Notes: generated by a model from the letters alone, not told the origin. A stretch of DNA of 48,970 nucleotides from Reclinomonas americana ATCC 50394 (GCA_048213135.1 PS015400.1:62001-110970); one strand, 5' to 3'; positions 1 to 47,173 are shown, numbered from the stretch's first letter. Numbers and translations are program-made.

Positions 1-3000
1 CGGAGACAAATGAGAGAGAATGCGCAGGGCTGCAGCAGTGCACTGGCGTCGATCCAACGTAACATGATATTCATGTACTCCATAAATCGGCGGTGTCTGG
101 CGTCACACAGGAGGAGAACGTCAGCAAACGGATACGTACTCGTATGCACACACACACAGTACTTACAATACTTCGTCAGCCGACAACGCCGCCGTGACCT
201 CATTGTCCATGCTCCCCAACTCCACGGTCGTCGAGTCTTTCACACCGTCGTCGCCGTCGTCGTCATCCGTCACGGCGGTGAGCGACGACGAGAGTCTAAA
301 CAGTGGATCGGAGGCCGTTTGCGTGGGATTGAGACGCTGCTCCAAACGAGCAACGGCCATGCCGAGGCTAGCAACTCGGCGTTCGTCCAATCCACGTACA
401 TTGAGTGACGCACTGTACAACTGCCGCAAGTGCGTGACCAGGCGTCGATACAGTTCACCGTGGGTACTGTGAGAGGTGACGTAAAATGAAACTGATGAAG
501 GAAAGCGACTGCCACACGCTGCTGTCACTCACCGCTGCATACTGCGAGCAACGAGCAAAAAGTCCACCAGAAGCCCAACAATGCGCCCGAGTATGTACTC
601 GTCGGCGCCGGCCTTCCCAAACAGCGTCTGATCGCCCACTACGCTGGACGACGATGCTTCGTCTTCCAGGTCCTCGACTCCCACCTCGTAGTCCTCCATT
701 GCACCGACAAGCAGCGAGTGCGTCGGTGAACTGTGACCGGCTGTTGGACAAGGGACAGAAATATCGAAACATCAGAAAACAGACAAACGAAACGTGTCGG
801 CAGCGAACACAGATGCCGAGTCGACCGGCAGCCGTCGGCGTACGGTCGGCGACGGCACCAGCGACTCGCGGGTTCCCGTGCGCTGTCGCTCAAAGGAAGC
901 TCGGGCACTCCACGCACCGCTGATGTAGTTGACGATCTCTGCATCGAGGAATTGCAGAAGCGACTGACTGTTGCTAAGATCCAGCACCGTCGGCGACACC
1001 ATGCCGGTATCGACATACACCTGCCAGAGTGGGAAAGAGAGTGCGTGAGACATTCGACGGCAGTCGACGAGGCAAGAATACCGCAATAACGACGTTACGC
1101 ACTGAGCGAATGAATGTGACCAGTGCACAGCGCAGTTCAATTGGAACGCCTTCCTCGATCAGCATCGACACGGCCTCTTCAAATGCCAGCGTCGACTGCA
1201 CGATGCTCTCAATCTGGCCACACCACCGTTGCGTGTGAGAAGACAAAACAAACACAGTCAAATGGGGAGTGCGCACAGGAGACGAACCGCAGTCTGCCGC
1301 CCAGACGCACACTTGGCAAGCACGCGCAACAGATCAATGTGGTACGCCAGCGGTCCTTGCGGGCGGTAACGATGGTCATCGGTCAACATCAATTCGCGAC
1401 TGCGGAGGGGTGAGTGACGATGGGGAGCAAGCAAGAGACGAGGGAATCAGAAGACCCACCGCTCAGCACGACCATTCTTGCCGCTGAACAGCAGCAGGGA
1501 CCGGGGGTGGTGTTGAACAAGAGCTTCGGCCACCAGCCGTTGATTGCGAGGAACCGGCAAGTCGTCGACAATGACCGACACCTCAAGAAGCTCCAAATGC
1601 CGACGCTGATGAGTGGCAGCACAACTGCTGGCGGCCAACTCGATGAGATCCACGGGAACTCGTTGTGCCAGCAGCGCCGAATTGCGAAAGATGTACGGCA
1701 GCAGCGAGTCTGCACCGACGTCACACCTGCAAGCGCAAACACTGTCAGTATCATACAGTGGTGATCAAGAGAGGGTTGACATGGCGCTCACAAGTAATGC
1801 GACTGAAAGAGCGTGATGTGCTCAGAGAACATGCGCTGCACAATCGGGCACAGCACAAGCGAAACCTGCGAAACAACATGTTGGTAAGCAGCACAGCACA
1901 GTCTGTTGTGGGCGCCGTGACTACACAACACACCGCCAACAGAGAGGAATACAGGCCACTGACTGCGGACTTGACAAGGGTTCGCTGCGCAGGGCGGCAG
2001 TGGAGGATATCCGCAGCTCTGCACCACGACATGCATGTCAGTTGTGCGCGTACACTTTGAGCTGCATGACGGGAGTGACCGACACGCAACGTCACTGATC
2101 GAAGCAAGTGCGTAATGACAGGGAAACAGCCGCTGGCAAAGAAAATTCCAACCGCGTCAGTTGGACTCTCACGCACGGCTCGGCGCATCGCTGCACACAC
2201 AATGCCATCAAAAAGAGAAGAAGAAGAAGAACAAGCAGAAAGATGGAGCGCACCCTCAGTGATGGTGCTCATCAAGTGTGCCTGTAGGCGCAGGAATAAG
2301 CGCCGGTCGTGCAGCAACACACACGACAATACGCACCACACGCTCCAGCAGATCTGGACTGCTGGTCCACTTGTCGTCGGCGTCGGTGGCCACTCGCACC
2401 ATGGCCAAACTGAGGTTCTGCATCTCTCGCTGACAGTCGACCAGCGTTCGAGAAAAGAGAAGCCTCACATCTTGCACCGTTGTCAGGGTGTCGGCAAACT
2501 TTTCGTGAATCATCAGCAGCGTGTGGAACGCTTCTGTCTGCAGTGCGACGCTGTCGTATTGGCACAGATCCAGCAGAATGTCGTGCACTTGCTTCGATGG
2601 AGAGACGCCAGAGCAGCGCTGGTACATGCACGATTCGCAGAGTCAGCATCGTCTCGCACCCCAAGGGACAGACGTCTGATACGTACGTTGATGACAGTCG
2701 GCAGATGAATGTCCTTGGCTGGCACACCGGCCTTGAAGTGTCGCAAGAGTACGGTGCAGCGGAAGGTGGTCTCGGTGAACAGCAACGTCTGCATCACCTG
2801 CAAGGCAACGACTTTGCAATTCTGCCCACACACAAGACAAACGCCTTCGTCAGCTGAAGCGGAGACACGAGACACAAGAGAGAAACACGAAACCATGATT
2901 GTATCGTTGTTCTCGTTGCTGGCGTAGCGGAAGTTGGAATGCCGCGTGGCTCCCGGTGCTGGCAGCAAGAGATGTAAGCTGCAACAAGCACAGACACACA

Positions 3001-6000
3001 TCTTGCCGACATCGCAACCCACCATCGTACACGTCTGTGGTGCCGTCCAGCAGGTTCCACAAGCTCTCAATGAGCGTCCCTCGCGATTGTCCGAGACCAA
3101 TGAAACCCTCCCGTATCAGTACGTGCAGAGTCTCGAGGAACAGCAGCACTGACTGCGAATGTGATGGATCGGACCAGCGCAGCCGCGTCTCCAATTCCTG
3201 CCAGATCACGCGCAAGTGAGACAGAAGTGTGCTCCACTCCATCATCCGCAGCGCGCACACACATACCACCACTTGCATCACGCCACTGACAATCTGCTCC
3301 TGCATCCGCACAACGGGGTGGTCGCCGTAGCGGTAACGCATAAACTCGGCATTGTCGATCGTGCACTCGAAGGAGGCTTCACTCAGCACCTCCGTCCAGA
3401 CCTGCGTGCACAACAGCAATAACACTTAGTTGTTGTACGATGATGAATTCGACACAAGCGACGAGCATGTTATGCACCCGAACGAGATTGATCTTCGGTA
3501 ACACTTGGAACGGTTGCTGGTCAATGTACAAACAGCGCAGAATGTAACAGCAGCCGGCGCGCAAACGCAGTGGCAATCGTGGATCAAAGGCCCCGCGTAC
3601 AACGACGGGCAATGAGAGGCCAAACGTGTCACCCACCAGCGTCACCGCCGGCCGGTACCGTTCCTAACGACCAGAATAAGCCAGATACACCAGAAGAACA
3701 GCATCAACGCACCGACTCACCGCCGCGAGCAGTGCGTACAGTCGCAGGCTGCTCATGAAAAACTCGTAGTCCATGCTTGGATTGGCTCGGTTGGCGGCAG
3801 CCCAGGACAGCACTTCTGTCGACTCCTTCACCGACAGATCCGAATTGAGAGACACCAACATGAGTTCCTCCCCGCTTGAGCGAGGCTCCTGCGTGAAGGC
3901 TGGCGTATGAGTGGTGATCACACACAGAGAGTCACAAGATTCGACAACAGGTGCACACCAAGCAGAGGCGGAAGAAAGGCCAATGTACTTGCGAGTCCGA
4001 CAACTCGCGAACAGCTGCATGCTGTGCATACCGACTGGCCCGGCCGTGTATCGACAGTCCGTGGAAGATGAGAAGCAGGTAGCTGCGACAAAAGAGGTGC
4101 CAATCAGTGAGACAAATGCGGGCACCAAGAAGCGATCATTGCATGGCAACTTTGGATTGCGGCCTTCGCGAGCGACAGCGGAGAGAGTGAGACGCACATC
4201 GACGCGGGTGCGGAATAGTTCCGCTTCGTTCTCAAAGCTGAAGAGTGAAGCGGGTGAGAGAGTGCGCAAAGAGGCAGTGTGCATGCACAACAAGATAGCC
4301 ACGAAACAGAAATGGAAAGGTCCAGCTGGCGCCGACAAACAGCGCAAAGTGGAGACGGAATATCGCCAACAGCGAAGACTCCGGCCGCAGCACGGCGTAC
4401 TTGTTGCGACGGTAGCCTCGAATCGACTGCCGGATCAGACTGTGCATTCGGGACGTACGGTTCACAAGAGACTGGTGCAGGGGCAACAACAGAGAACACC
4501 GGCGGCATGACTTACCGATAAAACAGGCGGAAGACATGTTGAGCTCGCTCATTCACTGGGTCCTCGCGGATTGAGCGACCCGGATAGGCGGTCTGCAACT
4601 CGCGAATGCAGAGGCACACCGCTCGTAGCACTTTCAGCTCTCGCAGTATCTTTTGGAACGCGCGGTCCAGACGACCCTCACGTGTCAATGGATCGGGGTC
4701 CGAGCTGATGGTGCACCCATTGATGAGGCGGGTCAGTGACTTGCAGATCCACTGGTACGAGCGGTCGTCATCCAGCTGCAGCGGGCCTTGCTGCAGAATG
4801 CTACGCATTGACACGAGCAACTACCCGGCACACTCACGAATTAAGCGAAGCGCATAGATACAGAGATAACGTCGCACAGTCGAGTGGCACGCAACAGGAA
4901 GATGAGTGGCGACAGAGTAGGCTCGTGAAATGTCCGAAAAGCTGACGTGCAGCATCTCCCACGTGCACGAGTACGACGGCGCAGAAGCAAAGACGAGCTG
5001 CACAAACAACGCCTCAGTCATCACGGCCACGAGAGCGACAACAACGACAGCAACACACACACACACACGCAACAGGAATACGAGAGCACTGAGCATCCTC
5101 ATCGTCCTCCAGCATGTCGAGGTCCTTTGGCCTTTCCTCGTCGCAATCGTTTCCCGTGTCGAGCACTGTGAGCACGCACCCCGACGCCACGTGCTGCAGA
5201 ATCACCTTGTCGCGGACAGAAAATGGCTCGTTGGTGCCGAGCGTGTGCTGCGCCCTGCTCGTTCAGACGCCACGACAACAGCCGACACCTTCACAACAAA
5301 CAAGCAAACAGACCGCAAGTTCGCCCTTGACGAGACGCCACAAGGTGTTCTCGTCGTCGCGATCGCACGTAGTGTACACAACCGGAATGCTGCTGGCGAC
5401 CGCCTCTGCAGCAGCGGACGATGTCACTGCAATCTCGGCGGCAGGCGCTGCGGCCGACGGGGCCGTGGCGGCCGACGTACGAGAGTCGGCGAGACCAGCC
5501 AGTGGATTGCGCGTCACCACCGCACCCTCTAGACGGAGGAGAGCCTCGGCGCGCGCCTCGGCCACCTCCTCGGCAGTGGCCATTTGCACAAAACGGTACC
5601 CGAGACCACCTACAGATCGAGGGAGTGAGGCGAGACCAATGCCACCCAAGAGAACCCATGCAATCCTCACTCAACGTGAGTCGCCAGCGGGCGACGGTGC
5701 GGCCACGGATGCGGCGCGTGCACGGTGGCCAGTGGTCACTGCATCGGGGTGGGCCGCCAGAAACATGCTGCCGCACATGTGCCGCAATCGAAATGTGCTG
5801 CCGAACTTGACAGCACCGCCTGTAGGTAATGGCAGGGTGAGGCGCATGAGAGAAAGAGAGAGGAAGGACAAGAGGAGGAGGAAAACACAAACCTGTGGCT
5901 GGGCACTCGTGCTCGATCTGGAAAAAGAGATTCGGGTTGTCCAGCTTCATGCGTGACACGCGAGAGCCACGTGTTGCGCGCGGAACAGTGCGGCTGTATG

Positions 6001-7161
6001 CTGCGACAGATGGAGAGACAACGTGTGAGGCGACAAAGGCGTGGAGCTGCTGAAAGATGATGAAGACGCACCGAAACCGTCGGCACAAAACTCACTGACG
6101 CACAGATGCGTCTGCGAGTTGGTGTGGTACAGCAGCACAGCATCGCCAAAATGCAGCAGCACCTCGTCCGGTGAGTTGGCGTAGGCGCGGCAGAAGCGAT
6201 GAATGCGCAGAGGTGAGCCAGCGAGCGCCGAGTTGAGCGCATACCGCTGATCGAGAGGCAGCTTGAACTGACTGACTTGCAGCAGCAGGTTGGTCTCCAT
6301 CACCGCCAGCATCAGGTCGTCTTCGATGCGCACCAGATCGCCGTCGTTGCGCAGTTTCATGGCCGGCGTCAACACGAAATGCGTGCACGAGGTCGAGTAC
6401 TTTTGCAACTGCACCGCCATGCTCGTCGACTCGGTGTCGGCCACACGCGGCGTCGATCCCAGCAGCCAGCCCGTACGCACATGTCGCAGCTGATGACACG
6501 CACAGATGAGAAGAGTGGCAGGGGGGAGGGGGGAGGAGGGGAGGGAGAGGACGAGAACATGCCTGCACAGTGCCGCTGTAGATACACGAGTGAGTCCGCA
6601 CGCGGTTCTCCTCGCACCGGTTCGTCTCACGCTCCTGCTCGGCCGATACCTGAGCACACAGCGTCTCATCAGTGGAGGGGCGATGGAAGAGAGAGAGAGA
6701 GGAGACGAGCGCAACATGCAGATGCTGCAACTCGGCGCGATCGCCCGGACTGAGCCAGGTCGGCGGCAACTGCGGATCAAACTCCTCCAGACCGAGCACC
6801 TCCAGTCGCCGCACATACTGCATCTGCACCACACACGAGGTGCGTGGCATCACCTCAAACACCGCATCTGTTTCTCGATCATCAGTCACTCATTCGTCAT
6901 GACTCTCGATGGATTGAGAGACGCACCCGAGAAGGATGTCGGTGGGTGCGACACACTCCCGCGCAAAACACCCGCGCGATCGTCGCTCTCGCTGTGTGTG
7001 CGCGTGAGGAGTGGTCAGAGGCGATAAGAAGACCACTCTGCCAATCACAACCGCGCTCACCCGACAGTGAGAACATAGCCGTCGAGCTCCACGCACTCAA
7101 TCGTGATGTGATCGCCATAGTGCAGCAGCGTAGGTGCAGGTAGCACGCTGTCTGCGCTCAT
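1..7161 (-). CDS. ITPR: Inositol 1,4,5-trisphosphate receptor (IP3R/RyR family) Ca2+ channel, paralog 1; multi-exon, 3' part lies beyond the window
   Basis: ATG at 7161. Spliced exons give the IP3R N-terminal suppressor domain (LLHYGDHITIEC..DGYVLTVG..PPTSFS/DAVFEVMPR; EQERETNRCEEN..YSGTVQ/LRHVRTG; HFVLTPAMKLRNDGDLVRIED), MIR-like repeats (LHFGDAVLLYH; GGAVKFGSTFRLRHMCGSMFL), a RIH-like segment (DPLTREGRLDRAFQKILRELKVL) and LLDLCQYD, which matches LLDLCKYD in paralog 2. Coding exons continue to the left edge; the pore is not in the window. Confidence 0.9.
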
Positions 7162-8212: not shown

Positions 8213-8266
8213 GGACGACGGACGGAGAGACGGAATTAGCATTTTTCTTAGGTTTTCGCCCATGCG

Positions 8267-9557: not shown

Positions 9558-10225
9558 TCACTTGGCCTGCTTGGAGAGATGTTGCAGTACGCGTGACTTG
9601 ACCCATGCCTTGTCGTGCGGCACATACGCTCCACTCTGATTGTTGAATGTCAACACGGCCAAGTCGGGCAACGCGTCGACTGCAACACACACACACAGTC
9701 AGGGAAGGCGACGAGAGCAGGCGCACAAACAGAGGAAGACGCAACTCCACGCATGCAAGTCCTCGATCTCGTATGTGATGGAGCGCGCCCTCGGGAAGTC
9801 CTTCTTCAGCTTTTGTTCGAACAACTGGCACACACCTGCAGCAATGATGATTAAGGGGTTTGCTATCACTCACTCTCACACACACAATCAGACGCACCAT
9901 CCATGGCCTCGTCACTCGACTCAAAGTCCGCATATGTGCGTGTGGCGGCCTTGGCGCCCGGTTGCAACAGAACAATGGTGTGCGTTTGTGCCTGTGCCTG
10001 TGACAACAAGTGAGCGACATGGCCATCGTGGTTTCTCTCTCTCTCCCTTTCCACCACCCGTCGTGCTTTTTGTTCCGCGTGTGCTCTGCTGACGCACATG
10101 AAGAGAGACACACAGAGAGAGAGAGGGGTGGCGGAGAGGCAAGACAACGCAAGTGCGTGTGACGCATGCATGCATGCAACGAGGACAACATGCAGGGTGG
10201 ACGGGCGCAGAAAGAGACCAACCAT
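9558..10225 (-). CDS. ERH: Enhancer of rudimentary homolog (4 coding exons; the first is probably the ATG alone)
   Basis: Spliced product ..THTIVLLQPGAKAATRTYADFESSDEAMDGVCQLFEQKLKKDFPRARSITYEIEDLHAWIDALPDLAVLTFNNQSGAYVPHDKAWVKSRVLQHLSKQAK* matches the ERH family (HTILLVQ..RTYADYES..SITYDI..FID..DL..PYNKDWIK). The start ATG|GTTGGT at 10225 is less certain than the body. Confidence 0.95.
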
Positions 10226-10998: not shown

Positions 10999-13900
10999 TC
11001 ACAGCATTGTGCAGCGGTGTTTGGCTTCACCCCAGTGACACGTGCAGCAGATGCAGCACAAGGCGAGGCACTTGGGGAAGCACTGGTTGCCGCATGTGTC
11101 GCAGTGGCAGGCGGTGACGCAGGTCACGCAGGATTCGTGCAGGCAGTTGGTGATGCCGAACTCGCGACTGCGGCTGCGAGGGTAAGGATCAGCACAGATG
11201 GCGGCGCGCGTGTGTGCATGTGCGTCGGTGGCACCACAGTAGACGTACCCGGCCAGTTCGTCGCGCGACAGCTCCCAGGTGCCAGGCGGTGCGATGCGTT
11301 TCTGGTACACGGTTTGCTCTCTGCCCTCGCCGTACCACTGCACTAGCAGGCCGGGTCTACCGTTCTCGTCAATGGCCCAATCGTCGTGTACCATGATCAT
11401 GTAATTGCGGGAGAACAGGAACCTGTGTGGTGGAGTGTGTGAGGAATCACGAGGTGTGGGAGGCAGCACCACGGACTCGGTCACCGTTCGCGACGTTGAT
11501 GCTCGGAGGCGTGACGGGGATAGAGATCGAGCCTGCGGTGTCGTGTTATGAGTTTGCTTGCCTGCTTGCTCATTACGCAAGCACATGACGGGCGCGCAAC
11601 AAGTAGGCGTGCATGCCGGGTGTCAGGTGTCGCGATGTCGATGTGTGACTGGCGAACCACGACATGGGTCCGGCCGGCAGATCACTCGGTGGCATGGCAG
11701 TGATGCCTGTTGTTGGGGGAGCAGTGAGTTGCAGTGGCATGGTGTGCACTCACCACTTCGGTTCGTTCACAAACCACTCGATACAAGTTGATTCATCAGC
11801 TTGACACTGGTGGCGGTGAGAGGGAGGAGATCACAACACAGCAAGTACTCATTTCTGCAGCGGGGCTCACTTTTCGTACTCGGGAGGAACGTCTGCAAAC
11901 GCTGGTGCACGTCTCGATTCACACACGCCCTATTGACTGACGAGTGAGTGCCATACAGCCTCTCTCATGTGCCGATGATACAAGATCACACCTGCCCGGC
12001 CACGTGCGGGTCACCCGAGATGAAAATCACTCGAGCACGCTTCTCCACGGCCAGCTGCACGTGCACCACACCGCCATGTGAGCAACACACCACTCCGCGC
12101 TCCACAAACACAAACAGATTTACGAAACAGTCTGAAAGTTCTTGAGCAGATCCGCTCGCTCCGCACGGTGCTGCACGGTGGACCATTGATCTCGCAGATC
12201 GTCTTGCACCAACACCAACATATCAGTGGCAAATGATGAGGCAGTGATCAGCGCATCGAGAGTCATTACCTTCGTTGTCGGCTTGGCCAGGAAGACTCGG
12301 CAATGTCTGTGCTTGCCACACGTCATGTACCATGTACAAGTACACGAGAAACAGGATGCCGGCACCAATGCAACTCACCATTCCAATCACTGCGACAATG
12401 CGCATGAGCTCATGACAGCACAGCGACGACGCATCACACAATTACGCAACACTCGTAGTTGATCCAGATAATCGGTGTCGGAGACGAGACCACAATGAAC
12501 CGAACCTCACCCTCATCCAAGTTCTGCATGACGACACACCGTAGCGTGTGCTGAGAACTGTGTCGTCCCACTTGCTGCGGTGACTCGCGACGAAACTGCC
12601 AACCACTCCATGATACGGCGATGCGTTTCCACTTTCACCACCTGTCGCTGCGAGCGCTCCGTGCGCATGTCCACCGCGACAAAAGCCCAATCGCCGAGCA
12701 AGTGCACGTATGTGGCCGACACCTGTGCATCACTGCACATCACTCAACTGCAGCTGCAAAGACACGTGGAACAGCAGCACGCGCTCTCGCACCTCCGGGT
12801 TTCCAAGCAGGTTGGTGCGAAAATCGCCAGCCAGCTGGAAGGCAAGAAACATTTCCTGGGCCACCTTGAACAGACCCTGCACGGCACCAGTGAACCTAGT
12901 ACGTGAAGGAGTGCATATGCATCACAGCTGTCTCCACCGCGTACCTGCATCACTGGCGACTGTTGATCTGCATCGCGGTACGATCCCCAGCCATCGAACT
13001 GTGCGCGCACACACGTGAACAGCAGCTCGCCCACCAGTAATCCACCACACGCTGCACATTACGCACAATATCGTGATCGTCCCACATGCATGAGAGCGGC
13101 ACCTGGCACATCACTCGCGAAACCGGAAATGAGCCCCAGTTGCTGCAGTAGTCGTCCCAGAAAAATCGATGCAGTGAGCGGTGCATTTCGTCGGTGAAGG
13201 GCGTCTCTCGGAGCGTTCGTGTGGCCTCCGTGTCACCGTACATAGCCTCCGCCGACTTGTCCACCCACTCACGCACTGCAGCGACCGCAGACCACACTGG
13301 ATCGGCGTAGATCTGATCGCCACCCATGTGCATCCTGCATGCACGATGTCATGAAACAACAACAAATGAACAGTTCGGCACGATTCGATTGTCAAAGAGT
13401 GTCTGCAGACGCAACATGTGATACGGTGGTGCGTCCTCTGGATCCAGGTGCGTTTCACGCAAGTGCTCCCACATGGCGAACAGAGTCGCGTCTTCTGTTT
13501 GCTCCTCCACCAGATTCGACATGCCAGAGTTGCCGTTGCATCTGCGGAAGACAGGTGAGCAAAAAAAACCAGAAGAGGTGTGCGAGTGTAGACTCGACTG
13601 AGAAGACGCAGCGAGGCAAAGAGCAAATTCGGAGCCGTGCCCACGGGTGGCACTCGGAACTCAAAGCGAAACGACGGCTGATCAAATTTGAACTCGGAGA
13701 ACGAGTAATGCACGACCTGGTGCACGTCATTCTGTGGCACATCCATGTCCCATCGAATGAGGGCCTGTCTGCCATCACAATCCATGGCCACTGGAGCGAC
13801 TGCTTCGACTGTTTGCGGTTCGCATCCGGGCGATGTCGACTGCCAAGTCAGAGTGCCTGGTCGTCTGCGCATTCATGCAGGGCAGATGTTGTTGGATATT

Positions 13901-18844: not shown

Positions 18845-19212
18845 TGGTGCCTGCGCGTCCTCCGCCGCCTCCCGCCAAGATCTTCTTGCCGCGTGAGGAG
18901 AGCTTGCAGTATGGCGGTGCGTTATGCATCACGGCTCTTTTTCTTGTATTCATTTACCGATCTCTCCACTTGCAGACGTGATTTACTTGCACACGCAGCC
19001 GGCACGCCGTGCGGAGGGCAAGACTCGCAGTGGTGGCTATCTGTCGACTCATGGGTTGCGTCCGTCTTGCACAGTCGGTGTAATCGTCATCGCCGTCGTC
19101 GTTGGTGCTCATTATGTTGCGCGTAGAACTGGCGATCGGCGCATTGTGCTGTCGCGTGGATCGGAAAAGTCCCCGCCTGTCGACTTTCAAGGTACGAGTC
19201 GCCTCTCTCATC

Positions 19213-35939: not shown

Positions 35940-36026
35940 GTGCGTCGCCAATGCCAGTGTGCGCGGAAAGAGTGTGTGAGAATGACGGCTTGTCGTTGTG
36001 TAGATTNNNNNNNNNNNNNNNNNNNN

Positions 36027-36765
36027 TGCTCCTCCGTCAGGCTCTCTGGGTAGTCAATGGTGAAGTGCACGTGCAAGTCGCCAAAGTAGTACGGGTCCTC
36101 GGTTCTCGGCATGCCCTCGCTCGGCACAATCATCTCAAAGCCTAGTCACCGCAGTGCGTGAGCAACAAACCACTCGTCTCCCTCTCTCTCTCTTGTGCGA
36201 GTCCACATACCAGGCTTCGTGGGATCCGTCCTCACCAGGCGGACCTCGTGGTTGTCCAGGTGCTTGATGGTGTAATCAAAGCCGACCAGTGACTGCAGCA
36301 GCGAAATGTGCTCGTCCACGTGCAGGTCGTCGCCGACACGACGGAAGCGCGGGTGCGGCATCGTGCGCAGACGCAGCACCAGATTGCCGGTGGTTCCGTC
36401 GAGCACGGGGTCCGAGGCCTCGCTGAACGACTGTGTGTTTGGTGTGAGTGAGCGCCGCCGACCGCACACCAACACTGCTGCGACGCAACAATTTCGTGGC
36501 CGTCGCGAGCTCCCTTCTCAATCTCCACCTCGAGTGTGCGCACGCTCGGCACAAAGTCGACGCTCGGGCACTCATCGCACCTGCCACCATGCACTCATCA
36601 GTTCCGGTCGGCACTGACGATGCCCGGCGACAAGCACGCACGCAGACGCAACTTGGTCTCCATGACCTGCTGGATAAAGTAGCCCTGCTGGCGAGTCACC
36701 ATCTGCTGACGGCAGTTGCACTTGCGCGTTCCACGGCCCTCCTCCTTGTCGTTACTGGCACGCAC
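36027..36765 (-). CDS. DNAJB11: ERdj3/DNAJB11-like DnaJ, 3' half, on an inverted contig
   Basis: GTRKCNCRQQMVTRQQGYFIQQVMETK/CDECPSV..LEVEIEKGARDGHEI/SFSEASDP..GNLVLRL..PHPRFRRVGDDLH..ISLLQSLVGF..HLDNHEV..KPG/..EGMP..GDLHVHFTIDYPESLTEE is the sequence expected directly after the + strand half. The block is flanked by N-gaps on both sides. Confidence 0.9.
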
Positions 36766-37081
36766 NNNNNNNNNNNNNNNNNNNNNNNNNNNNNNNNNNN
36801 NNNNNNNNNNNNNNNNNNNNNNNNNNNNNNNNNNNNNNNNNNNNNNNNNNNNNNNNNNNNNNNNNNNNNNNNNNNNNNNNNNNNNNNNNNNNNNNNNNNN
36901 NNNNNNNNNNNNNNNNNNNNNNNNNNNNNNNNNNNNNNNNNNNNNNNNNNNNNNNNNNNNNNNNNNNNNNNNNNNNNNNNNNNNNNNNNNNNNNNNNNNN
37001 NNNNNNNNNNNNNNNNNNNNNNNNNNNNNNNNNNNNNNNNNNNNNNNNNNNNNNNNNNNNNNNNNNNNNNNNNNNNNNNNN

Positions 37082-37813
37082 ACAAGAGACACAAGAGACA
37101 CATACCGTGTTGATCAGGCCCACAGAGGTGGTGCAAAAGTCACCGTACGAGATCTGCATCCACACACACACACAAGTGAGTGCGCGAATCTAAGGGCGTG
37201 TGAGAAGTGTGCGCACAGACTGACACACCCACTGCTTGACCGCCAAGCACACGATCGTCATCAGCACACAGAAGTAGCCGACACCAGCCACCACCAGTCC
37301 ACCGAGCTTCTCAAACGCTCCGTGACTATGTGCAATCATCATCATCAACATCACTCAATCCACACACACACAGCGCACGAGTGAGACGAGAACGAAACGG
37401 TGGTTGCTGTGACTGCTGTGTTCCCACTGGAGGCCACGCTGCAGGCTGCGTCGCGTGCGTCGCAAACTGCACAGCACACACAGTCAACAAGTGTGACGCA
37501 ACACAAACACACAGTCAACACAACGCACAGTGTTCGCATAGGCCGGTGGTGGTATACGTTGCGGCTGTGATGGAAGCACGCCAGGTGCGCCTGGTGGCAC
37601 ATAGCCGCCGCCGCTGTTGTCGATGAACAGAGGCTGGCCAATGCCGCCGACAGCAGTGACGGGTGGTGGTGGTCCGACGGGGTAGTTCTTGGAGGGTGGT
37701 GGCAGAGGCGCTTGAAAGCCGGGAGCGGCGTAGTAAGGGGCGGCGGCGGCGGCGGCAGTGGAAGGAGCGGCAGCATCGCCACTGGGAGTGAAGGCGCGAT
37801 ATGTACCGGCCAT
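37082..37813 (-). CDS. Hypothetical protein with a Pro/Ala-rich N-terminus followed by a hydrophobic (TM-like) segment; 3' end in the gap
   Basis: ATG at 37813 (MAGTYRAFTPSGDAAAPSTAAAAAAPYYAAPGFQAPLPPP..). Downstream exons include SSVDWWLVSATSVLMTIVCLAVKQW and ISYGDFCTTSVGLINT, bounded by GT/AG introns. Confidence 0.65.
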
Positions 37814-37990: not shown

Positions 37991-40754
37991 TCATGTGCCG
38001 GAAAAGTCGACGACACTGACGAGAAGTGTCTGTGTCAGTGAGCCGCCTGTTAGTCCGGCGATCAGTCCGAAGCTCTGCAGACAGACAGGGGGATGCCGGT
38101 GGGCACGAATGACGGGGGTTATTGAGTAGGTGCAGCGGCAGGCGCACCATGACAATGCCCGCGGTCTCCAGATCCACCGTGCGAATGCCCTTCGAGTCGA
38201 TCATCATGCCCATGGTGGCCTGTGTGGAGCACACGAGTCAAGGCCTTTGTCGATGCCCATGCACGGAACCTCGAGGCACACTCACCAGCAATCCGCTGAC
38301 ATACCCAATCACCACCGTGATCACCAGGCTTGCCCAGTCATTCGCAATGAGGTGCGGTTTCACGCAGAAGAAGACCAGTGGAATGAACAGTAGCCGCACG
38401 ACGACAGCCACGTAGTACCAATGTGGTGGCCAGCGCGGGATGTAACCGGCCGTGATGCGACCTGTGATGCCGCGACAGCAGTGAGGGGGAGAGTGCAGGG
38501 GAGAGCGGTTTGTTATTCGGTGGCGCACCGACAAAGTCGCTAAAGTTGAACACCATCTGTGTCGCGTGCACACTCCTTTAAAGGCCAGCTGTGGATCACA
38601 TTGCGGCACCGACCACTCACCAGCAGCGTCACCGGGAACCAGTCGTTCGACCAGGTGTAGGTAACCGGCGGTATCAGCGCCACAATGCCCGGATAGATGA
38701 CGTACGACGAGAAGAAGGTGACAAAGACACAGAGGAACGGCTTCCACAGCAGGCGGAAGATGGACCAGATGCCTGAGCCGGCGTCCTTGTGTTTCTGCCT
38801 CCGCAGACCTGCACGGACTCAGACAGGCGACACAAAATGCGCCCAATGAAAGTAACACATGCACGCAACTCCATCGCGCCTCGTCATCATCGTCAATATC
38901 CTCCTCGTCATCGCCATCGTCACGACCCGCTGTGGCAAACTGCTCACACGACACTCGATAATTACATCCAGCACGTGATATTTCCAGTACAACCAACGCA
39001 CCTCTCGTTCCAAAAAATGCTGACTGAAACCCCACCCGCGCATGGCCAGGTACAGCAGCAGCGAGAGCACGATGAGGACCACCGACACCGAAAAATAAAT
39101 GTACGATGACACCACGGCTGGGTGATTGCACATGGTGAGAGAGTGGCAGCACGTACGACACTCGCAGCGTGCTGGCGCAACTGGTGCGCGACGTGGTGAA
39201 CGCCGCCTTGGTGATCATGCGCACGGACGACGCAGTGAGGCCAGCCGCGGCGGCACCTACCAGAGTGGCTTGCATGTAGCGTGGCGGGAACAGTGAGGCG
39301 AGGCCGAGCACTGCGACAAGAAAATCAGCAACGAGCAGAAGCGTTATGGGGTGTGAGACTGTAGCATACCAGTCGCATTCAGTACACCACTGCGGGCAGG
39401 GGATGCAAGAGTGAGGCGTGGTGTGCGAGGAGATAAGACAACGGAGGGAGGGAGGGACACACGCAACGCGACACAACCTGTCGAGTCGGCAAGCACGGTG
39501 AGTCAGGAGCGATCAGAAGAGCAGCGCGTAGGGGACAAGGCCTCTCTCACTCACCGGTCGTGAAAAACGAGCCCAGCAGAAGGAAATAGGCCGTGCGTTG
39601 ACTCGTCAGGTACGTCCACGCCGTTGAGATCATGAAAAGCACAATGAGAATGGGATAAAACATGAGCATGCGACTGTGGATGGTGAAACGCTGCGCGCGA
39701 ATGCCGAATGCACATGTCAGAGGCCACGACGGCAGGGCGCCATTGCATGAGACACACACACCTTGGCCCATATCAGCACGGGAAAGTAAACGAGAAAGTT
39801 GCCGAGGTTGTACGAGAACGAGATGTTGCTGATGACCCCGCTGTACGACGGATACTGCTGCTTCATAAAGTCGACTGCTCCCATGAACCTGAGCACGGCG
39901 GCGGTGAGCACCCTTCCCGATCGCACCCGCCTGCTCCACGACGCAACGAAAAGAACGGCAGCAGGAACGAGGCGCCTAGCAGGATGCACGACAGGTACGT
40001 GCGTTGGCACTGCAACAGGCAGCGGAACAGTGAGACCACCGAGAGAACGAACGAACAAACCAACGATCGATCGCATGCATGCATGCACCTGATCGCGTGG
40101 CAGCAGCGTAAAGTCCGTGCCGGAGGCTGGCGACGTGGAGTGCTTGCTGCCGCCAATGAACATGTCGCCACTCGGCACATCGCTCTCAGAGTCATCCCCA
40201 CCAAACCCGCCGTACCCTCGATACGGCGTCGGATGCCGTCCATTGCCGCTGTCGATCGGAGACGGAGGTGACTTGTTCCCGCGCCCTCCGCCTCGTTTCA
40301 CTCCTCCTGCATCAGTCTCCCGCACCGTGTCTGCATTGATTGTGGTCGACGGTCTCTGCTTCCCTCGTCGCCCAGCAGAAGAGGCCTTGTCGCGATCGGT
40401 GCGCCCGTTGTTGGGTGAGCTGGCTGTGTGCTGAAAGAGAGGCGCAATGCCTGCGACTCCAACACCGCCGCCCCCACCACTGTTGCTGCTGCTGTTGTTT
40501 GTGGAGTCGCCGAGGAGCAGGAGACTGCCATCGGGAAGTCGCGGAGGGCCAGAGTTGCTGCCGTACGACTCGGGCTCATCGGACCACTCAAAGTCGCCAG
40601 TGATGAACTGCAGCCGTGTGAGTGTGACAAAGAGATAGAAGGGAGGAAGAGAGGAGGGCGTGCCTTGGTCTTGGAGCCCGACCGGCCCGGGCGCATCTCG
40701 ACGACGAATCAATGCATGCAAGGACGCGACGGACGTCGACGTACAAGAAACCAT
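37991..40754 (-). CDS. Equilibrative nucleoside transporter (ENT/SLC29 family), copy B, with a long low-complexity N-terminus
   Basis: GAVDFMKQQYP, LGLASLFPPRYMQATLVGAAAAGLTASSVRMITKAAF, YIYFSVS, VIYPGIV, WFPVTLL/..FNFSDF/..GRI, RLLFIPLVFFCV, GYVSG, ETAGIVM/SFGLIAGLTGGS. Stop at 37991-37993; the exact first exon is uncertain. Confidence 0.9.
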
Positions 40755-40793
40755 GTTTTACATTCGTTGAAGCCTACGTATTAAACAGCGCTA

Positions 40794-42893
40794 TTACGTA
40801 CTATCGTTGTTGGTGCCGAGGTCCAGCCAGGAGACCAGACCGGACTGCAGCAAGGAGCCGGTGATGAGACCGGCGTTGAGTGCGAAGCTCATTAGAATGC
40901 CCGCCATTTCTTGGTCGTGGCTCTGCACGCGGCTGCACCCGTAGATCATGCCCATGGCTGTGTGTGCGTGGAGTGAGTCATAGAAAACGGGGAACGGCTG
41001 AGAGCGACACAACTGCCAAAGAATCCTGCAAATTGAAAAATTAGTTGAGAAATCGACTGGCGTGATGAGCAAGAGACGGCACGACGCACCATTCGTGAAC
41101 CCAAAGAGCACGGAGAGGATGAGTGGCACCATATCGGCGTGGATCAGAGATGGTTTGACGCAGAAAAAGATGAGCGGAATGCACGCGATGCGGCAGAGTG
41201 TGGCGATGAACAGGCCGGTGGGTCCAAAGGGCTTCCAGTTGCCCACAATGCGCCCCGCCTGCGCGAGTGTGCACGAATGAGGGTGGCGAAAGCAGCAAGT
41301 TGTCTTCATCAGCACAACACGCAACAAAGTCAGACACGTTCCACAACAGGAGCAGCACAATGGGAAACCAATGGTCGTTGCCCCAGCTCCATGTGTGAGC
41401 CGGAATGGCGGTGACGATGCCAGGGAAGACGACAGCCGAGAGGAAGAAGGTGAGGTACACGACCAGGAACATGAGCTGCGGCGGCCACAAAGGTTAGGGG
41501 CGATGCCGCACAACGTGAGACGGCTGGCGCACGCTACGCAACAAAGATCGATTTGAACACTTGGAACGTCTTGGACTTGGGTTTGTCGGCGATCAGCGGT
41601 GCTGCAGTCTCGCACGATCAGATCACATGCACGCACACACACAGAGACATGGCACACACACACACAAAGCAAGCGTACCGGATTCGGGATCATCCGACGT
41701 ATTCAGCACCACCTTGGTCTGCACGATTTGGAACACAGAAGGTGAGCAGCAGCGGGCGACACGACCACGTGCAGGCGCACGCAGCTTCCTTGTCCAAGTA
41801 GTACTGCGCAAACGGCCACGTGCGCATCATCGTGTACAGCAGCACGCAAACAAGAAGGAGGAGTCCGCTGAAGCCAAAGTAGACGGCCGATGACAGAACC
41901 ACTGCCGAGAGGAAGAGTGAGTGCAATGCGCAAATGCCAGCGCCCTCTCCACGCACACGCGCACACCTCCTCGGTTGGGACCAAGCGCGGCCTTGGTGAT
42001 GATCCGCGAGGTCGAAATGAGCGTGCCCGCCGCACCCACACCTGCACACGCAACGCCGAGTGAGGAGGAGCACATCACTTCGTCGAGAGAACATCACATG
42101 CAAGACAACGCGCCTGTCAGCGCGCTCTGCGTGTACTTGGGCGGAAACAAGGCCGCCAAGCCGAGAATGGTGGCATTCAGCACCCCACTGACGACACCTG
42201 CACGCCACAGTTGAGGCGCAGTGCGGTGGAGACAAGAAAACGGAGAAATATACCAATGAGGAACATGGAGGCCTCCAGCAACCACGACGCCGTGTTGATC
42301 TGGTTCGACAGAATCACGCTCCAGAACGGCGTAATGCCCAGCAGCACAAACATGCTCAAGTAGCCGGCCACAGTGCGCACGAGAATGCTCACTTTTTGCG
42401 CAAAGAACAGCAGCAGCAGATAGATCACAAAGCCTCCAATGCTACACACACACGCGCACACACACACAAAAGTCAGCTTCCTCGCGCACAGTGTGTGTAT
42501 GAGAGAGAGAGAGAGACGCGTAACTTGTACGCAGTGTTGATATCAGTGACTACGTTCTTGTGCCCGGGGTACTGATCGTTGAGAAAGTCGACAGCGTTGA
42601 TCATGCTAAAGAACGGAAGCTGCATGCAGAGCAAATCAGTGTGTGTGCACGCTCTCTCTCACACTCTCTCTCACAGAAAGAGAGGCATACCATAAAGCCA
42701 GCTCCGAGCACCATCACGACAATGTAAGTGGCGGTCTCCTGTTTCAGCGTGTGAGAGAGAGTGTGCGCGCGAGAGAGAGAAGAGCAGTCGCGCATGATGT
42801 GACCTTGCCCTCTGGCACCCTGTGGCGCAGTGCTCTGGTCACCTCTGCATCCTCAGAGTTGACACTGCTCCATTTCTTCTCAGACGCACTCAT
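40794..42893 (-). CDS. Equilibrative nucleoside transporter (ENT/SLC29 family), copy A
   Basis: MSASEKKW..YIVVMVLGAGFM/LPFFSMINAVDFL, LGLAALFPPKYTQSALTG/VGAAGTLISTSRIITKA, AVYFGFS, VFPGIV, WFPIVLLLLWNVSDF/AGRI, RIACIPLIFFCV, FGFTNG, EMAGILMSFALNAGLITGS. Confidence 0.93.
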
Positions 42894-42953: not shown

Positions 42954-45900
42954 ATGAGGAGCGATCGTCGTCGTCTTCTTCTACTCCTCCTGCTCCTCGT
43001 GTTGGCTTGTGGGCGATGCGACGCGCAGAGTTCCACGTCAACATTGCAGCCGCTCGGTGACATTCTTTCGCGATGGACGAGCGCTGGCGACTCGGTGGTG
43101 TCGGCCTCTGGAGTGGCCCTGCACTCGTTCCTCGCAACAGGTGCCACACCAAGTGGAGGCCCGAGTCTGGCAGATGCCACGACGCCCTCCATGTTGCGTG
43201 GCTTTTCGCGCGCGATCCACTCTCGAACGCAACTGTCACACACACACACACACACACGCACGCACGCAACGAGCGAAAGAGAGAGAGAGGCGCATCGGCA
43301 GCGACATGTGCAGATAGATGCGACTTGTGTGTCGTCAATGTCACCACACCTTCACTGATGCAGTCGCAGTCAGCAATCATCAACCGATGCTCGATTTCGT
43401 CATTTATTCATTGTGTGATTGGTGACAGGTTTGGTGCGAGTGGCGGTAACGTGATCAACGTTGGATCGGTGTCGAGTCTGTCGTATTCGACGAGTCGTGT
43501 GTCGGCCAACACAGCGTGGGGCAGCGATGGGCAGTGGTTCACGGCGCAGTCGGTGAGACATGCAATTGGCGTGTTGTTCGCGTTGGCGTGATCTCATGAT
43601 CATTGTGCCCCGCGATGCAGAGTCAAGTGTGGATGTTTGCGGCCAACTCGATGAGTGTCACGGGCTTCCAGATCCGTGGCACGTCGGGTGGAAACACGTC
43701 GCGGCAAGCGTCGGCAACGACGCTGCAGATCACCAGCAACGGGCACACGTATTCTGTGCTCTGTCGCCAGGTGTGGACGAGAAAGCGGTGTGCTCTCTCT
43801 TTCTATCGTAGCGTGTCTGACACGAGCGACACACAGACGTTCAGCGGAGCCGCGCCATCGATTGTGCGCATGACACTGGTGCCAGATACGCCGTCGGTGT
43901 CGCAGACGTCGTTCGAATCATCGCCCTCTGTCGACAATGTCGACATCAACAATCTGTCGGCCGCCGTTCGGGTCTACCACTTGCTGTTCTCGCAGTTCGG
44001 CAGCACCGACTCGACGGCCTTGACTAATGCACAACTGCGCAGGTTGAGTTGACACCGTGAACCTGTCCTTTTCCGAACTCACTCACATGTCCTCGCTTCA
44101 GTGTGGCCAACTCGTTCATCTCCAACGTTTTGCACACGGTTCCCAGCGATGTGGCAAACTTGTCGCTCGCCAGTGTGCAGTCCGCCATTCCCACTGCCGT
44201 GCCCGCGATCGCCGCTGCCACGGCATCATTTTTGTCAACTGGCCTGACAACGTCCGGCAACACGGCCTTGTCGTACACGGGCAGCAATGGTACGTGTCAT
44301 GCGTCGACTGGCGGGCAGGGATGATTCTTGCAGCTCACGTATGTGTGCATGCGCAGCTGCCCTTGGCAACACGGTGACCACCAGTGTCAATCTCCAAGTG
44401 CAAAACACCGACGACGTACTTATCACACCGTCGAGCACGACGTCGCCCTTCCTCACAGGCTCCTACGTGTCGTACACTACCGGTGGCCTGTACGTGCTGG
44501 CTGCCGATATCTCCGCCATCTCCAACTTGGCCATCTCCGGCAGCACGGGCATGACGTCGTCGGCCTCTGTGAACTTTCTCACGCTTACGGCTACTGATAC
44601 CACTGGCATCATTCACACGGCGTTTGTGCGTTTTGTGTGCTCGACTACCCCCGTGTGCATTGTCCACATGGGCATCATCATGGCCGGCCAGTCGTGCGGC
44701 GCCACGGGCACTGCCAGCTCGGCAGCCTCGGTCGATTCGCTCTTCCTCTCCAATCTGCTGCCGTGCCAGCGCGCGTACCTCCTCACCTACACTACCACGG
44801 CGGCAGTGACCGAGACGACGGCTCGCGCGACGATGCGAGCGGCTCTGCAGTCGCTGGCGGGCGTCTCCATTTCTGGCGGTGATTGCGTGCACCTCGTCAC
44901 CTGCGCGCGCCGTCGTCGTTGTCTATTTGACTGACTGTGCGAGTAACAGGCAATACGCCCAGCGATAATTCACTGTCGTCCTACTCGTCGCGGCTCACCA
45001 ACAACTCATCCTCACTGAGCAACGCGATTCCGAGTCGGTTCAACTTTGTTGACGGCTTCACAGGCACGGAGATCAACGACGGCGGCGAAGACATGTTTGA
45101 CGGGTGAGATAGCATGCAACACTCGCTTCCCCTTCTCTCGCGTACTCACACACACACACACTCGGTGTGTGCGAGCAGTGGAAATCAGCTCAACACCAAC
45201 GTCCAGTCTCTGANNNNNNNNNNNNNNNNNNNNNNNNNNNNNNNNNNNNNNNNNNNNNNNNNNNNNNNNNNNNNNNNNNNNNNNNNNNNNNNNNNNNNNN
45301 NNNNNNNNNNNNNNNNNNNNNNNNNNNNNNNNNNNNNNNNNNNNNNNTTCCGTACACGAACGGAAGTGTGTTGTCGCACACCGCCTTTGGACCCACCGGC
45401 TCGTATCTCACGATGAAAATCACCGGAGCGTTCTTTTGGGTTGCCAAAGTGCGTGGCTTCGATTGCTGTTGTATATATGGTGGCTAACCGCAGTGCAGCT
45501 GGACAACGTCTCCTCAGTGTCCATCACCGGCAACAATGGTGCCGACGGCGCGGGCTCGGCAACGTCAAACAACTTTCGAGTAAGCGTTACCGATGACACT
45601 GGTGCAGCGCAGACGTGGCGAGTGTTTGTTGCGTGCACTTGCTGTCTCCCTCTCTCTCTTTGTAAGACACAACGATTGTCGTACCAACGTATGTGCTGGA
45701 CAGACCAAGCGCATTTGCAACTCGGGCGACCCGAGCATCAATCACGTTTCGTGTGTCTGCAGCACACGCCGTTGTGCGACTGCTCCGCTCACACATGTGG
45801 CCGTACATAGATTTGGATGATCAACTCGGCGGCTCCGAATGCGTCTAGTGTGTCGCAAACAATCGCCACCGACACCAACAGTGACCTGGATCAGCTTACC

Positions 45901-47173
45901 AATATGACCGGTGTGTGCATACACACACACGCACACACGTGCAGTTGTCATGTGCAGTGACATGCTCACTCTTCGTCGGTGCGCTTTCAGGTATCTCGGA
46001 GGTGCACTACATGTTGTTTGGAGGGCAGGGCTCGGCGTGTTTCGCGCAGGATACGTTTTCGGGTCTGGCCACCAACTACCTCGGTGTCGTGCTGGCCAAC
46101 CGCGCAGCCTCTGCGGTCCCCACTCCGGTGAATCGCACCGCCATTATCGTGGGCACTGTCTGTGGTGGTGTCGTCTTCCTCGCCATTGTGATTTTGTTGC
46201 GTGCATCGATGCTGGTTTTGTTGGTGGACAAACAATGACATGTTCTCCGCAGTGTGACGGCTAAGTGGCTCGTCCCTGGTTGCATCGTGGCACGACGACG
46301 ACGACAGGCTCAAGCCGAAGCAGCACGCGAGCAGCTTCGCCGCGATCGTGACGCTCATCTGCACGTAGCCGAAATAGAACGACAGCGTGAGGCAGCTGCC
46401 ATTCGCGCAGCAGCACCACTCCCGTCACCACGTTACGGTAATCCATCACCAATCGGCAGCGACAGCGATATGCCCTTGATGGGCGGTGCACCGGCGTCGG
46501 CGCAAATCGGCAATGCCAATCCGGCGGCCTTCGAATTGGTGCCTCCGGACAACGTGATGGCCGCCATGGCAGCTGCGGCCGCGGGAGGGAAGAATAATCA
46601 AGGAGGTGGTGGCAACGGAGAGCCACCGCTCAAGCCGGTGTACCCGGTGCGTAGTATGGGAACCGTATGCTGAAATATTGTGAGGGTGAGATGCTGACTC
46701 CCACTGTGTTGCGCAGGGCGCCAATATGCCTCTGCCACCAGCTGCACCGCTCTTTGCGCCGCCAGCACCATTATCGCCTGCTAGCGCCGCAGCACCGTAC
46801 GCACCTCCCCCATATCAATATGTACCGAGTGCACCACCAGCGCCGCTGTCGCCAGAGGTGGGTTGGCGCCTGCTGAAGAGTGGTGTTATCACGAAAGAGT
46901 TGTTGCTTAGTGACTCGGCATCGCGCGCAGTTTGCATCGCTGGCTGTGCCTGCCCCACCCGGTGGTCCAGCGTATTCGGCCGCTCCTGTCATCTATCCAC
47001 CAGTGCGTTCACACGTGCCACTCGTTCCGTGCATTGCCCAAAATGTAATCTCTCACATGCACACACAGGCTGCACCCATGTACGCGCCCGCTCCACCCAC
47101 AACAATCGAAATGGCGCGACTGTCACCATCACCACCACCACCCAACTCGCCACCGCCAGCGTATTACCCATGA
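42954..47173 (+). CDS. Type I single-pass membrane protein: signal peptide, Ser/Thr-rich ectodomain with two copies of an unassigned domain, TM helix, Pro-rich tail with PPxY motifs
   Basis: MRSDRRRLLLLLLLLVLACGRCDA signal; TM AIIVGTVCGGVVFLAIVIF/VTAKWLV followed by ARRRR; tail APPPYQY and SPPPAYYP*. Frame-consistent GT-AG introns throughout, with one gap inside. Confidence 0.82.

Follow-up and report, generated by a model that had tools for sequence, protein, structure and literature searches.

Predicted 5' splice sites with an extra T after GT in short introns of Reclinomonas americana, and their possible recognition through a shifted U1 register

Genes and gene models in the window

The stretch of DNA analyzed in this study, hereafter the window, comprises 48,970 bases of a eukaryotic nuclear scaffold of Reclinomonas americana ATCC 50394 (GCA_048213135.1 PS015400.1:62001-110970), with a G+C content of ~57% and five N gaps. 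Its genes carry many introns of ~70 nt each. The subject of this report is a set of 5' splice sites (5'SSs) predicted for these introns, in which one T is placed after GT and the word that normally follows GT is found one base further downstream, as in GTTGCGT.

Gene identities were assigned by running Pfam over the open frames and the predicted exons. Two IP3R/RyR-like paralogues are located on opposite strands with 17 kb between them, one at ~23.9-34.5 kb on the + strand (about 23929-34527, with the stop at 34527) and the second at ~163-7161 on the - strand. The + strand additionally carries a metallophosphoesterase gene (8.2-9.5 kb), a WD40 frame of 1431 codons (18.9-23.2 kb), and a DnaJ gene (35.05-36.0 kb). 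On the - strand, we found an enhancer-of-rudimentary (ERH) gene (9.56-10.2 kb), a PhoD_2-like gene (12-13.7 kb), a tandem pair of nucleoside-transporter genes (37991-40696 and 40794-42714), and a GH125 gene (47.8-48.97 kb). No tRNA genes were found in the window. The closest protein relatives of the window genes in large protein libraries showed just 33-39% identity, and the top database relatives of an IP3R-like exon were at 39% or below. The relatives that could be named belong to a heterolobosean, a Rigifila transcriptome, Phytophthora, Diplonema, and fungi. Two further searches found none, and a search of a protein atlas returned 'DnaJ_C' as the sole label.

Introns were predicted with our own dynamic programming gene finder, which requires GT...AG boundaries and an open frame, scores coding potential with a periodic Markov model and introns by their composition, and contains no donor matrix. 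The gene finder was self-trained on the window with a second-order model, as a third-order model was too conservative. Three sets of predictions are referred to below. 'Donor-free run 1' contained no donor model and yielded 131 introns. 'Donor-free run 2', to which an acceptor matrix and a length prior were added, again without a donor model, yielded 144 introns, 131 of them being 45-125 nt in length. The 'two-class model' included a donor term for each of the two classes defined below and allowed GC donors with a penalty, yielding 155 introns; this model is circular for motif discovery and gives better exon models. Throughout, a normal (class 1) donor bears a base other than T at +3 and G at +5, and a shifted (class 2) donor bears T at +3 and G at +6.

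A donor word displaced by one base

The most frequent donor hexamer was GTTGCG in all of the three sets. In donor-free run 1, it accounted for 20 of the 131 introns, followed by GTGTGT (6), GTTTCG (5), GTGCGT (4), and GTACGT (4). The corresponding counts were 19 for GTTGCG, 13 for GTGCGT, and 6 for GTTTCG among the 144 introns of donor-free run 2, and 28 for GTTGCG, 22 for GTGCGT, 9 each for GTGTGT and GTGAGT, and 8 for GTTTCG among the 155 introns of the two-class model.

Position by position, the donors with T at +3 appear to carry the normal word one base late. Among the introns of 45-125 nt in donor-free run 2, the 48 donors with T at +3 had C at +5 in 29, G at +6 in 34, T at +7 in 31, and G at -1 in 13 cases, while the 49 donors with G at +3 had C at +4 in 25, G at +5 in 37, T at +6 in 26, and G at -1 in 31 cases. 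Thus, the proposal of the initial annotation that +3T donors bear the word at +5 to +7 is borne out on the predicted donors of the window. The enrichment of G at +6 among GTT donors (34/48) over background, on which that proposal depended, was found as well: GTT was accompanied by G at +6 in 87 of 338 occurrences in exons and in 46 of 233 in introns (Fisher p = 1.9e-9 and 1.6e-11, respectively). The displacement is tied to the base at +3, since G at +6 followed by T at +7 was seen in 29 of the 48 donor-free donors with T at this position but in 1/21 with A, 0/13 with C, and 2/48 with G (3/82 for the non-T donors together). In other words, the extra base was T in 29 of the 32 donors with the displaced word. 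When the normal and shifted donor matrices were compared, the summed Jensen-Shannon divergence was 0.314 at an offset of +1, against 1.58 at 0 and 0.86 at +2. The intronic signal of class 2 therefore corresponds to the normal (G/A)-C-G-T after GT, one base late and preceded by an additional T.

The shifted donors are not confined to a few genes. The 130 N-free GT introns of the donor-free set were divided into 54 normal, 34 class 2 (26%), 11 with GTTnG, and 31 in neither group, the last of which probably include mispredictions. In the two-class model, class 2 comprised 42 of the 140 GT introns of 45-125 nt (30%), and its donors occurred in 14 of the 19 gene models, including all 10 models with at least five introns. 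The view that this organism uses the shifted donor routinely is thus upheld for the predicted introns.

The word itself is overrepresented in the window. GTTGCG[TC] had 53 matches on both strands, compared with 30.43±5.02 in 100 dinucleotide shuffles, the maximum of which was 42, so that 53 was attained in 0 of the 100. Within gene spans, GTTGCGT occurred 28 times in sense and twice in antisense orientation, and on the sense strand it ranked first of its 140 letter permutations (mean 5.8, sd 5.5); 24 of the 28 sense occurrences serve as donors in the two-class model. All 26 coordinates at which GTTGCG[TC] donors had initially been annotated were present in our pattern scan. Of the 34 sites annotated in total, the two-class model recovered 28, namely 22 of the 26 GTTGCG[TC] sites and 6 of the 8 variant donors, and added ~15 shifted sites. 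The sites that were not recovered are 10388, 11600, 43193, and 46196 among the former, and 10756 and 26178 among the latter. Site 46196 was a donor in donor-free run 1, and 10756 sits in a low-scoring gene model. The intron at 26178 would connect both halves of the IP3R-like gene, which the model broke at an in-frame TAA within this putative intron. Altogether, the observation of shifted donors of the GTTGCG[T/C] type is confirmed, every junction being a predicted one.

Junctions fixed by conserved protein sequences

The positions of the junctions were examined by scanning single-exon translations against Pfam, by comparison with PDB 1w9g, and by tblastn with two homologues, P0039 and P0077. 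The continuity of a Pfam domain, the PDB chain, or a homologue places five predicted class-2 junctions to the codon (donors 9745, 30601, 32747, 41325, and 41013), in agreement with the earlier statement that conserved motifs fix several junctions; the rest rely on the gene models.

The ERH gene contains a 66-nt class-2 intron, GTTGCGT...CAG, in phase 1 at 9680..9745 (-). Its exons cover positions 2-29, 31-59, and 61-98 of PF01133, leaving one profile position for each split codon, and the second of these junctions is that at donor 9745. Against the solved structure of human ERH (1w9g), residues 1-26 of exon 2 correspond to chain residues 32-57, so the 29 amino acids of this exon reach 60, and exon 3 begins at 62. 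The split codon under GT-AG is ATC.

Two of the fixed junctions are in the + strand IP3R/RyR-like gene. The 71-nt phase 2 intron at 30601..30671 (+; GTTGCGT) interrupts the RIH_assoc domain. On PF08454, residue 163 of the 164 in the upstream exon is at profile position 22 and the downstream exon begins at 25, residue 164 and the split codon providing 23 and 24; P0077 runs through this junction free of gaps (...HFEP|LQNY...). In the channel region, tblastn matches meet across the 77-nt phase 2 intron at 32747..32823 (+; GTTGCGT), with P0039 matched at 2408-2426 and then 2426-2472, and P0077 at 1628-1646 and then 1646-1692.

The remaining two are in nucleoside-transporter gene A and were placed on PF01733. 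Around the 67-nt phase 0 intron at 41259..41325 (-; GTTGCGT), the upstream exon extends to profile position 196, with position 198 taken by residue 2 of the downstream exon. The second is a class-2-like intron of 56 nt in phase 1 at 40958..41013 (-; GTTGTGT), preceded by a 12-nt micro-exon (41014-41025, -) that ends at donor 41013 and bridges the profile: the five-position gap between 262 and 268 equals two split codons plus the three codons of the micro-exon.

A further case in the DnaJ gene, the 77-nt phase 2 intron at 35586..35662 (+; GTTGCGC) of the two-class model, is supported rather than fixed. It follows the J domain, whose profile match stops at ...YD, two codons upstream of the donor, and donor-free run 2 took GTGTGG, 12 nt downstream, instead.

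These placements bear on two explanations in which the cut is not at the GT of GTTGCGT. The junctions might all be misplaced, GTTGCGT being a word of composition or codon usage, or an element in or beside introns. The junctions are indeed predicted by a gene finder trained on the same window, and the GT at +6/+7 offers a second donor five bases downstream, which donor-free run 2 chose at four sites (29143, 39942, 2085, and, nearby, 30564). On the other hand, the five junctions above leave zero slack, the 28:2 ratio of sense to antisense occurrences and the enrichment over both shuffles and the GTT backgrounds of exons and introns argue against a mere word, and GTTGCGT is located where the reading frames break, to resume 55-105 nt on after CAG. 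We therefore regard such an artefact as very improbable.

Alternatively, the true cut might be one base downstream (G|UUGCGU), which would keep the U6 register fixed at the expense of introns starting with UU and with their 3' ends shifted by one base as well. A cut at that position would obey the rule that the G:C pair with U6 follows the cut at a distance of five bases (PMC11162779), and at 30601 and 41325, where the downstream exon begins with G, the mRNA would be identical either way. However, such a cut would require non-GU 5' ends and non-AG 3' ends in ~30% of the introns. No excess of G was seen at the first exon base after the 42 class-2 acceptors (A 9, C 12, G 9, T 12), and the split codon of ERH would become AGC instead of ATC. 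This explanation appears extremely improbable to us.

Features shared and not shared by shifted and normal introns

Apart from their donors, introns of the two classes resemble each other. All class-2 introns of the two-class model are GT..AG introns, except for two GC versions. The median length is 70.5 nt in class 2 and 68 nt in normal introns (p = 0.68). A branch-like motif, CTNAY, was found in 30 of the 42 class-2 and 55 of the 80 normal introns, at median distances of 18 and 19 nt from the 3' end, respectively, and the acceptor profiles are the same. Within the 40 nt at the 3' end, the classes were not separated by any 4- or 5-mer once the 758-841 tests performed had been corrected for (best p = 0.0008 among 758 words). 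The equal lengths, branch-like motifs, and acceptors, together with the lack of a class-specific 3' word, point to a single type of spliceosome rather than to introners or a classical U12-type class. An origin from introners or mobile elements was also rejected in an all-against-all blastn of the 155 introns, the matches of which did not exceed 23 nt and were all of a microsatellite or low-complexity type.

As a separate observation, 8 of the 149 introns with lengths of 45-130 nt received a predicted GC-AG donor in spite of the penalty, the two GCTGCGT sites included.

The exonic side of the donor differs sharply. G at -1 was found in 4 of the 34 class-2 donors (12%) and in 40 of the 54 normal donors of the donor-free set (p = 1.2e-8), and the commonest base at -1 of shifted donors was T (14/34 in the donor-free set, 17/42 in the two-class model). 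On the intronic side, T at +7 of class 2 (29/34) corresponds to T at +6 of normal donors (36/54), G is found at +4 in 22/34, and conservation stops at +7, position +8 being C in 13, G in 10, T in 7, and A in 4 cases.

A probable shifted U1 register and the alternatives to it

The position of the cut at a 5'SS is generally attributed to a fixed spacing between GU and a G that C4 of U1 snRNA reads first and the C in the ACAGA box of U6 reads afterwards. We consider it probable that the GTT-(G/T/C)-CG-T sites are GT-AG 5'SSs of short U2-type introns that are read through a shifted U1 register. U1 snRNA would dock one position out of register, and the usual partner of G-1, a C, would face G+1 instead. 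U+2 would be mismatched, U+3 would replace U+2 opposite A7 of U1, and G+6 and U+7 would stand in for G+5 and U+6. The cut would stay at the sole GU, being set by the later step involving U5, U6, and Prp8, and this step would have to work with a cut that is six instead of five bases away from the G recognized by the U6 ACAGA box, or to skip that pairing. A normal G|GTGCGT and a class-2 |GTTGCGT differ by one base, with the cut following the GT, which agrees with the established view that U1 marks the splice region and U5/U6 fix the cut (PMC11162779). Variant U1 or U6 snRNAs or altered fidelity factors, as suggested in the initial annotation, may be involved.

The same displacement of G and T could arise from a bulged register, in which ordinary U1 pairs with G+1 and U+2 as usual and one U (+2 or +3) is bulged out. 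Such a register has been validated experimentally at human sites (PMC4856993), accounts equally well for G+6 and T+7, and would allow the bulge to migrate by means of the U-U pair. The two registers differ in what they predict around the cut. A bulge leaves C9 of U1 free for G-1, so that a preference for G-1 no weaker than that of normal donors would be expected, against the observed 4/34 versus 40/54. Nor does a bulge offer a strong reason why T is the extra base in 29 of the 32 donors with the displaced word. In the shifted register, the preference for G-1 is lost because G+1 is put on C9, and the extra base is T because U+3 is needed opposite A7. Thus, the loss of G-1 and the identity of the extra base favour the shifted register, and we regard the bulged one as quite unlikely.

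Several points weigh against recognition through a shifted U1 register. All statistics are from a single 49-kb window, which also served to train the gene models. In the textbook view, U6 has a fixed register in which five bases separate the cut from the G:C pair downstream of it, one exception of four bases having been reported (PMC11162779). Pairing with U1 is weak: RNAduplex with the canonical 11-nt U1 end gave a mean of -1.80 kcal/mol for the 34 class-2 donors versus -5.87 for the 54 normal donors, and G+6 was paired with C4 in the minimum-energy duplex in just 10 of the 34. The GUUGCGU consensus forms virtually no duplex with canonical U1, although the U1 of this organism may differ, and pseudouridines and U1C are outside the model. 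The low frequency of G-1 in class 2 looks like a depletion that goes beyond neutrality, for which the shifted register offers no explanation. Likewise unexplained is the distribution of intron phases: all three occur among class-2 introns, as had been noted, but phases 0, 1, and 2 are represented by 14, 8, and 20 introns in class 2 and by 39, 29, and 12 in normal introns, an excess of phase 2 in the former (20/42 vs. 12/80, p = 1.8e-4).

Class 2 is also more uniform than a normal donor with one T added. The initial annotation had described the shifted donors as the same words with one T inserted. Its one-base displacement stands, +1 being the best offset, whereas the words themselves are tighter, with C at +5 in 27/34 of class 2 against C at +4 in 25/54 of normal donors (p = 0.0035), A at +4 in 1/34 against A at +3 in 10/54, and GTTGAG found twice against 21 times for GTGAG in the two-class model. 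This tightness points to an extra constraint or a different reader. A weak shifted site may need every other favourable base. The preference for C opposite position 5 of U1 is not accounted for by canonical U1, and we predict that a U1 end complementing GCG words would account for it.

A U6atac-like gene and the possibility of a dedicated reader

A candidate for a different reader is encoded in the window itself. A U6atac-like snRNA gene was detected at 34657-34788 (+) with a score of 37.8 bits for Rfam RF00619 (gathering score, 33; E = 7.4e-6), matching the model over its full length (positions 1-126). It is situated in the spacer that separates the DnaJ gene from the stop of the IP3R-like gene at 34527, and has a T run at its end. 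The Rfam search, extended to E = 5, gave nothing else credible in the window, and no U1, U5, or U6 gene was found there. From the presence of the U6atac-like gene, a minor spliceosome is probable in this organism. The 5'SS-binding box of the U6atac-like RNA is ACCGAGAGA, compared with AAGGAGAGA in the Rfam consensus, and both GAGAGA and AGC are present. The changed box predicts an altered U12-type donor with ...TCGGT at +4 to +8.

A predicted 71-nt intron of the IP3R-like gene at 24022-24092 (+) starts with GTATCGTTTG, and its donor, GTATCGTTT, is one base off the U12-type word. At +6, this donor has a G that fits the base altered in the U6atac-like RNA; the intron shows no clear branch motif of the U12 type, and its likeness to U12-type introns is anecdotal, being a single case. 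RTATCCTT with up to one mismatch had 25 matches in the window against 19.7 expected, of which just that at 24022 is at a predicted donor. A search of the window for RTNTCGGTG was uninformative.

Could the class-2 donors be read by a dedicated machinery, namely a second U1 that complements GUUGCGU or a transformed minor spliceosome that uses the divergent U6atac-like RNA? In the unshifted U6atac register, the G and C of ACCGAGAGA would pair with C+5 (27/34) and G+6 (34/48 of the +3T donors), both of which rank among the three variable positions with the highest conservation in class 2, T+7 being higher (29/34). The A of the same box would pair with U+4 of the GTTTCGT subclass, and the single difference of donor 24022 from the U12-type word is compensated by the changed U6atac base. 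The tightness of class 2 relative to class 1 and its poor pairing with canonical U1 are in line with a separate reader as well. However, the complementarity to the U6atac-like RNA amounts to two to three bases of five conserved positions: T+7 (29/34) would face C, G+4 (22/34) would face A, and U12-type sites have A at +3 where class 2 has T. A separate branch motif, spacing, or acceptor is lacking, and nothing past +7 resembles U12-type donors. As for a second U1, if it had an inserted A, its C9 would still be opposite -1, predicting a preference for G-1, which is absent. Considering both sides, we regard a dedicated reader as unlikely.

A straightforward assignment of class 2 to U12-type introns was rejected, as its word is GTT[GTC]CGT instead of RTATCCTT, no class-specific branch word was found of the kind that is strongly conserved 10-15 nt from the 3' end of U12-type introns, and the spacing of CTNAY is as in normal introns.

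Put most broadly, the genome might employ two co-equal 5'SS codes, with ~30% of introns either read one base off by both U1 and the U6 ACAGA box and cut six bases upstream of the G paired with U6, or served by a dedicated reader of GUU-N-CGU and forming a third intron class in effect. The candidate readers would be a U1 whose 5' end is re-tuned to GCG words, or the U6atac-like RNA with its box complementing C+5 and G+6. A U1 complementing GUGCGU would make a five-base-pair helix with one mismatch on GUUGCGU. We put forward this broad proposal as a speculative and rather unlikely one.

Other predicted class-2 donors and further observations

The other predicted class-2 donors are given here with their basis, namely the pattern scan for GTTGCG[TC], the two donor-free runs, and the two-class model. 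Found by all four were, on the + strand, GTTGCGT at 28243..28249 (IP3R-like gene), 32087..32093, 35723..35729 (DnaJ gene), and 45628..45634, and, on the - strand, GTTGCGT at 48122..48128 (GH125 gene; added to those in the initial annotation), 41536..41542 (transporter gene A), 38863..38869, 36646..36652 and 36483..36489 (both in the contig with DnaJ_C), 13409..13415 (PhoD_2-like gene), and 12444..12450, as well as GTTGCGC at 39175..39181 and 6709..6715 (second IP3R/RyR-like gene). The scan and the two-class model were joined by donor-free run 1 for GTTGCGT at 29138..29144 (+) and 39941..39947 (-; transporter gene B), and by donor-free run 2 for GTTGCGT at 19055..19061 (+) and 29745..29751 (+). 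GTTGCGT at 30038..30044 (+; another addition), 16165..16171 (-), 5067..5073 (-), 4889..4895 (-), and 2084..2090 (-) came from the scan and the two-class model.

Donors with other words were predicted in both donor-free runs and the two-class model on the + strand at 33192..33198 (GTTTCGT), 33606..33612 (GTTCCGT), 44043..44049 (GTTGAGT), and 45746..45752 (GTTTCGT), and on the - strand at 42518..42524 (GTTACGC), 12122..12128 (GTTTCGT), 5669..5675 (GTTGAGT), 4301..4307 (GTTTCGT), and 2887..2893 (GTTTCGT). Donor-free run 2 and the two-class model shared GTTTCGT at 12590..12596 (-) and GTTGCGA at 3012..3018 (-), the latter being a weak, class-2-like donor of a 40-nt intron. The two-class model contributed GTTTCGT at 37392..37398 (-) and 787..793 (-), and the two GC versions, GCTGCGT at 13606..13612 (-; predicted with GC donors penalized) and at 41779..41785 (-).

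In the gene model at 15098-16179 (-), the shifted donor 16171 is accompanied by four donors in the normal register that also have T at +3 (GTTCGT and three times GTTTGT), suggesting that T at +3 is tolerated in both registers.

The DnaJ gene is split in the scaffold. Its J domain and G/F region are on the + strand up to the gap at 36007-36026, and the remaining DnaJ_C (profile 60-152) is on the - strand of a 739-bp contig (36027-36765) with gaps on both sides (36007-36026 and 36766-37081). This contig is probably inverted within the scaffold; alternatively, there are two truncated, convergent DnaJ genes. Microsatellites of (TG)n, (GA)n, and (CT)n are common in introns and spacers (e.g., 16440-16620, 32655-32685, and 34960-35000), and ...CACACAG forms the 3' end of many introns.

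Comparison with known systems

To our knowledge, out-of-register 5'SSs are known just as rare human exceptions, established minigene by minigene. We found no report of a donor class such as the one described here, including noncanonical registers in fungi or protists, in the literature searched, which did not extend to supplements, and a genome paper could mention it. If our interpretation is true, the genome would be a natural, genome-scale test of the slack in the hand-over from U1 to U6 and in the catalytic core, and would reveal which changes in snRNAs, Prp8, SNRNP27, or U1C permit this slack. In practice, gene prediction based on canonical donor matrices will annotate a large share of the exons of this genome, and of related ones, wrongly.

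U12-type introns, which are expanded in some protists, likewise form a second, sharply defined class of 5'SS beside the major one, and a U6atac-like gene is present in the window. They differ from class 2 in having the RTATCCTT word and a distinct branch motif and spacing, none of which are features of class 2, where conservation ends at +7.

In C. elegans, the upstream donors promoted in snrp-27(M141T) begin with GTTGTGA and depend on a tri-snRNP protein that positions the 5'SS (PMC6140464). Those sites are mutant-dependent and alternative, being 3 nt from the normal donor, in contrast to the class in the window, which appears constitutive. The tandem donor of human STAT3, with a noncanonical U6:5'SS register, likewise has a distance other than five between the cut and the G paired with U6 (PMC11162779). 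In that case, the register is -1 (four bases), concerns one human exon, and needs extended downstream pairing, whereas the register proposed here would be +1 (six bases), would apply to many introns, and has no conserved region downstream.

The noncanonical U1 registers of human 5'SSs are the closest parallels. The register with a bulge at +3 or +2 (Roca et al. 2012, via PMC4856993) involves the same displaced G+6 and U+7 but predicts that G-1 is kept, which is the case in 4 of our 34 donors. The shifted (+1) register of Roca and Krainer (2009, via PMC4856993) shares with the predicted class-2 donors the extra base after GU, the roles of G+6 and U+7, the cut at GU, and the lack of a need for G-1. 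The human word is AAGU and that of the window GCGU. According to PMC4856993, all validated noncanonical registers together account for ~1.5% of human 5'SSs, and the shifted register has been proven at a few sites. Thus, what is a rare exception in human would, in the window, apply to 26-30% of the predicted introns.

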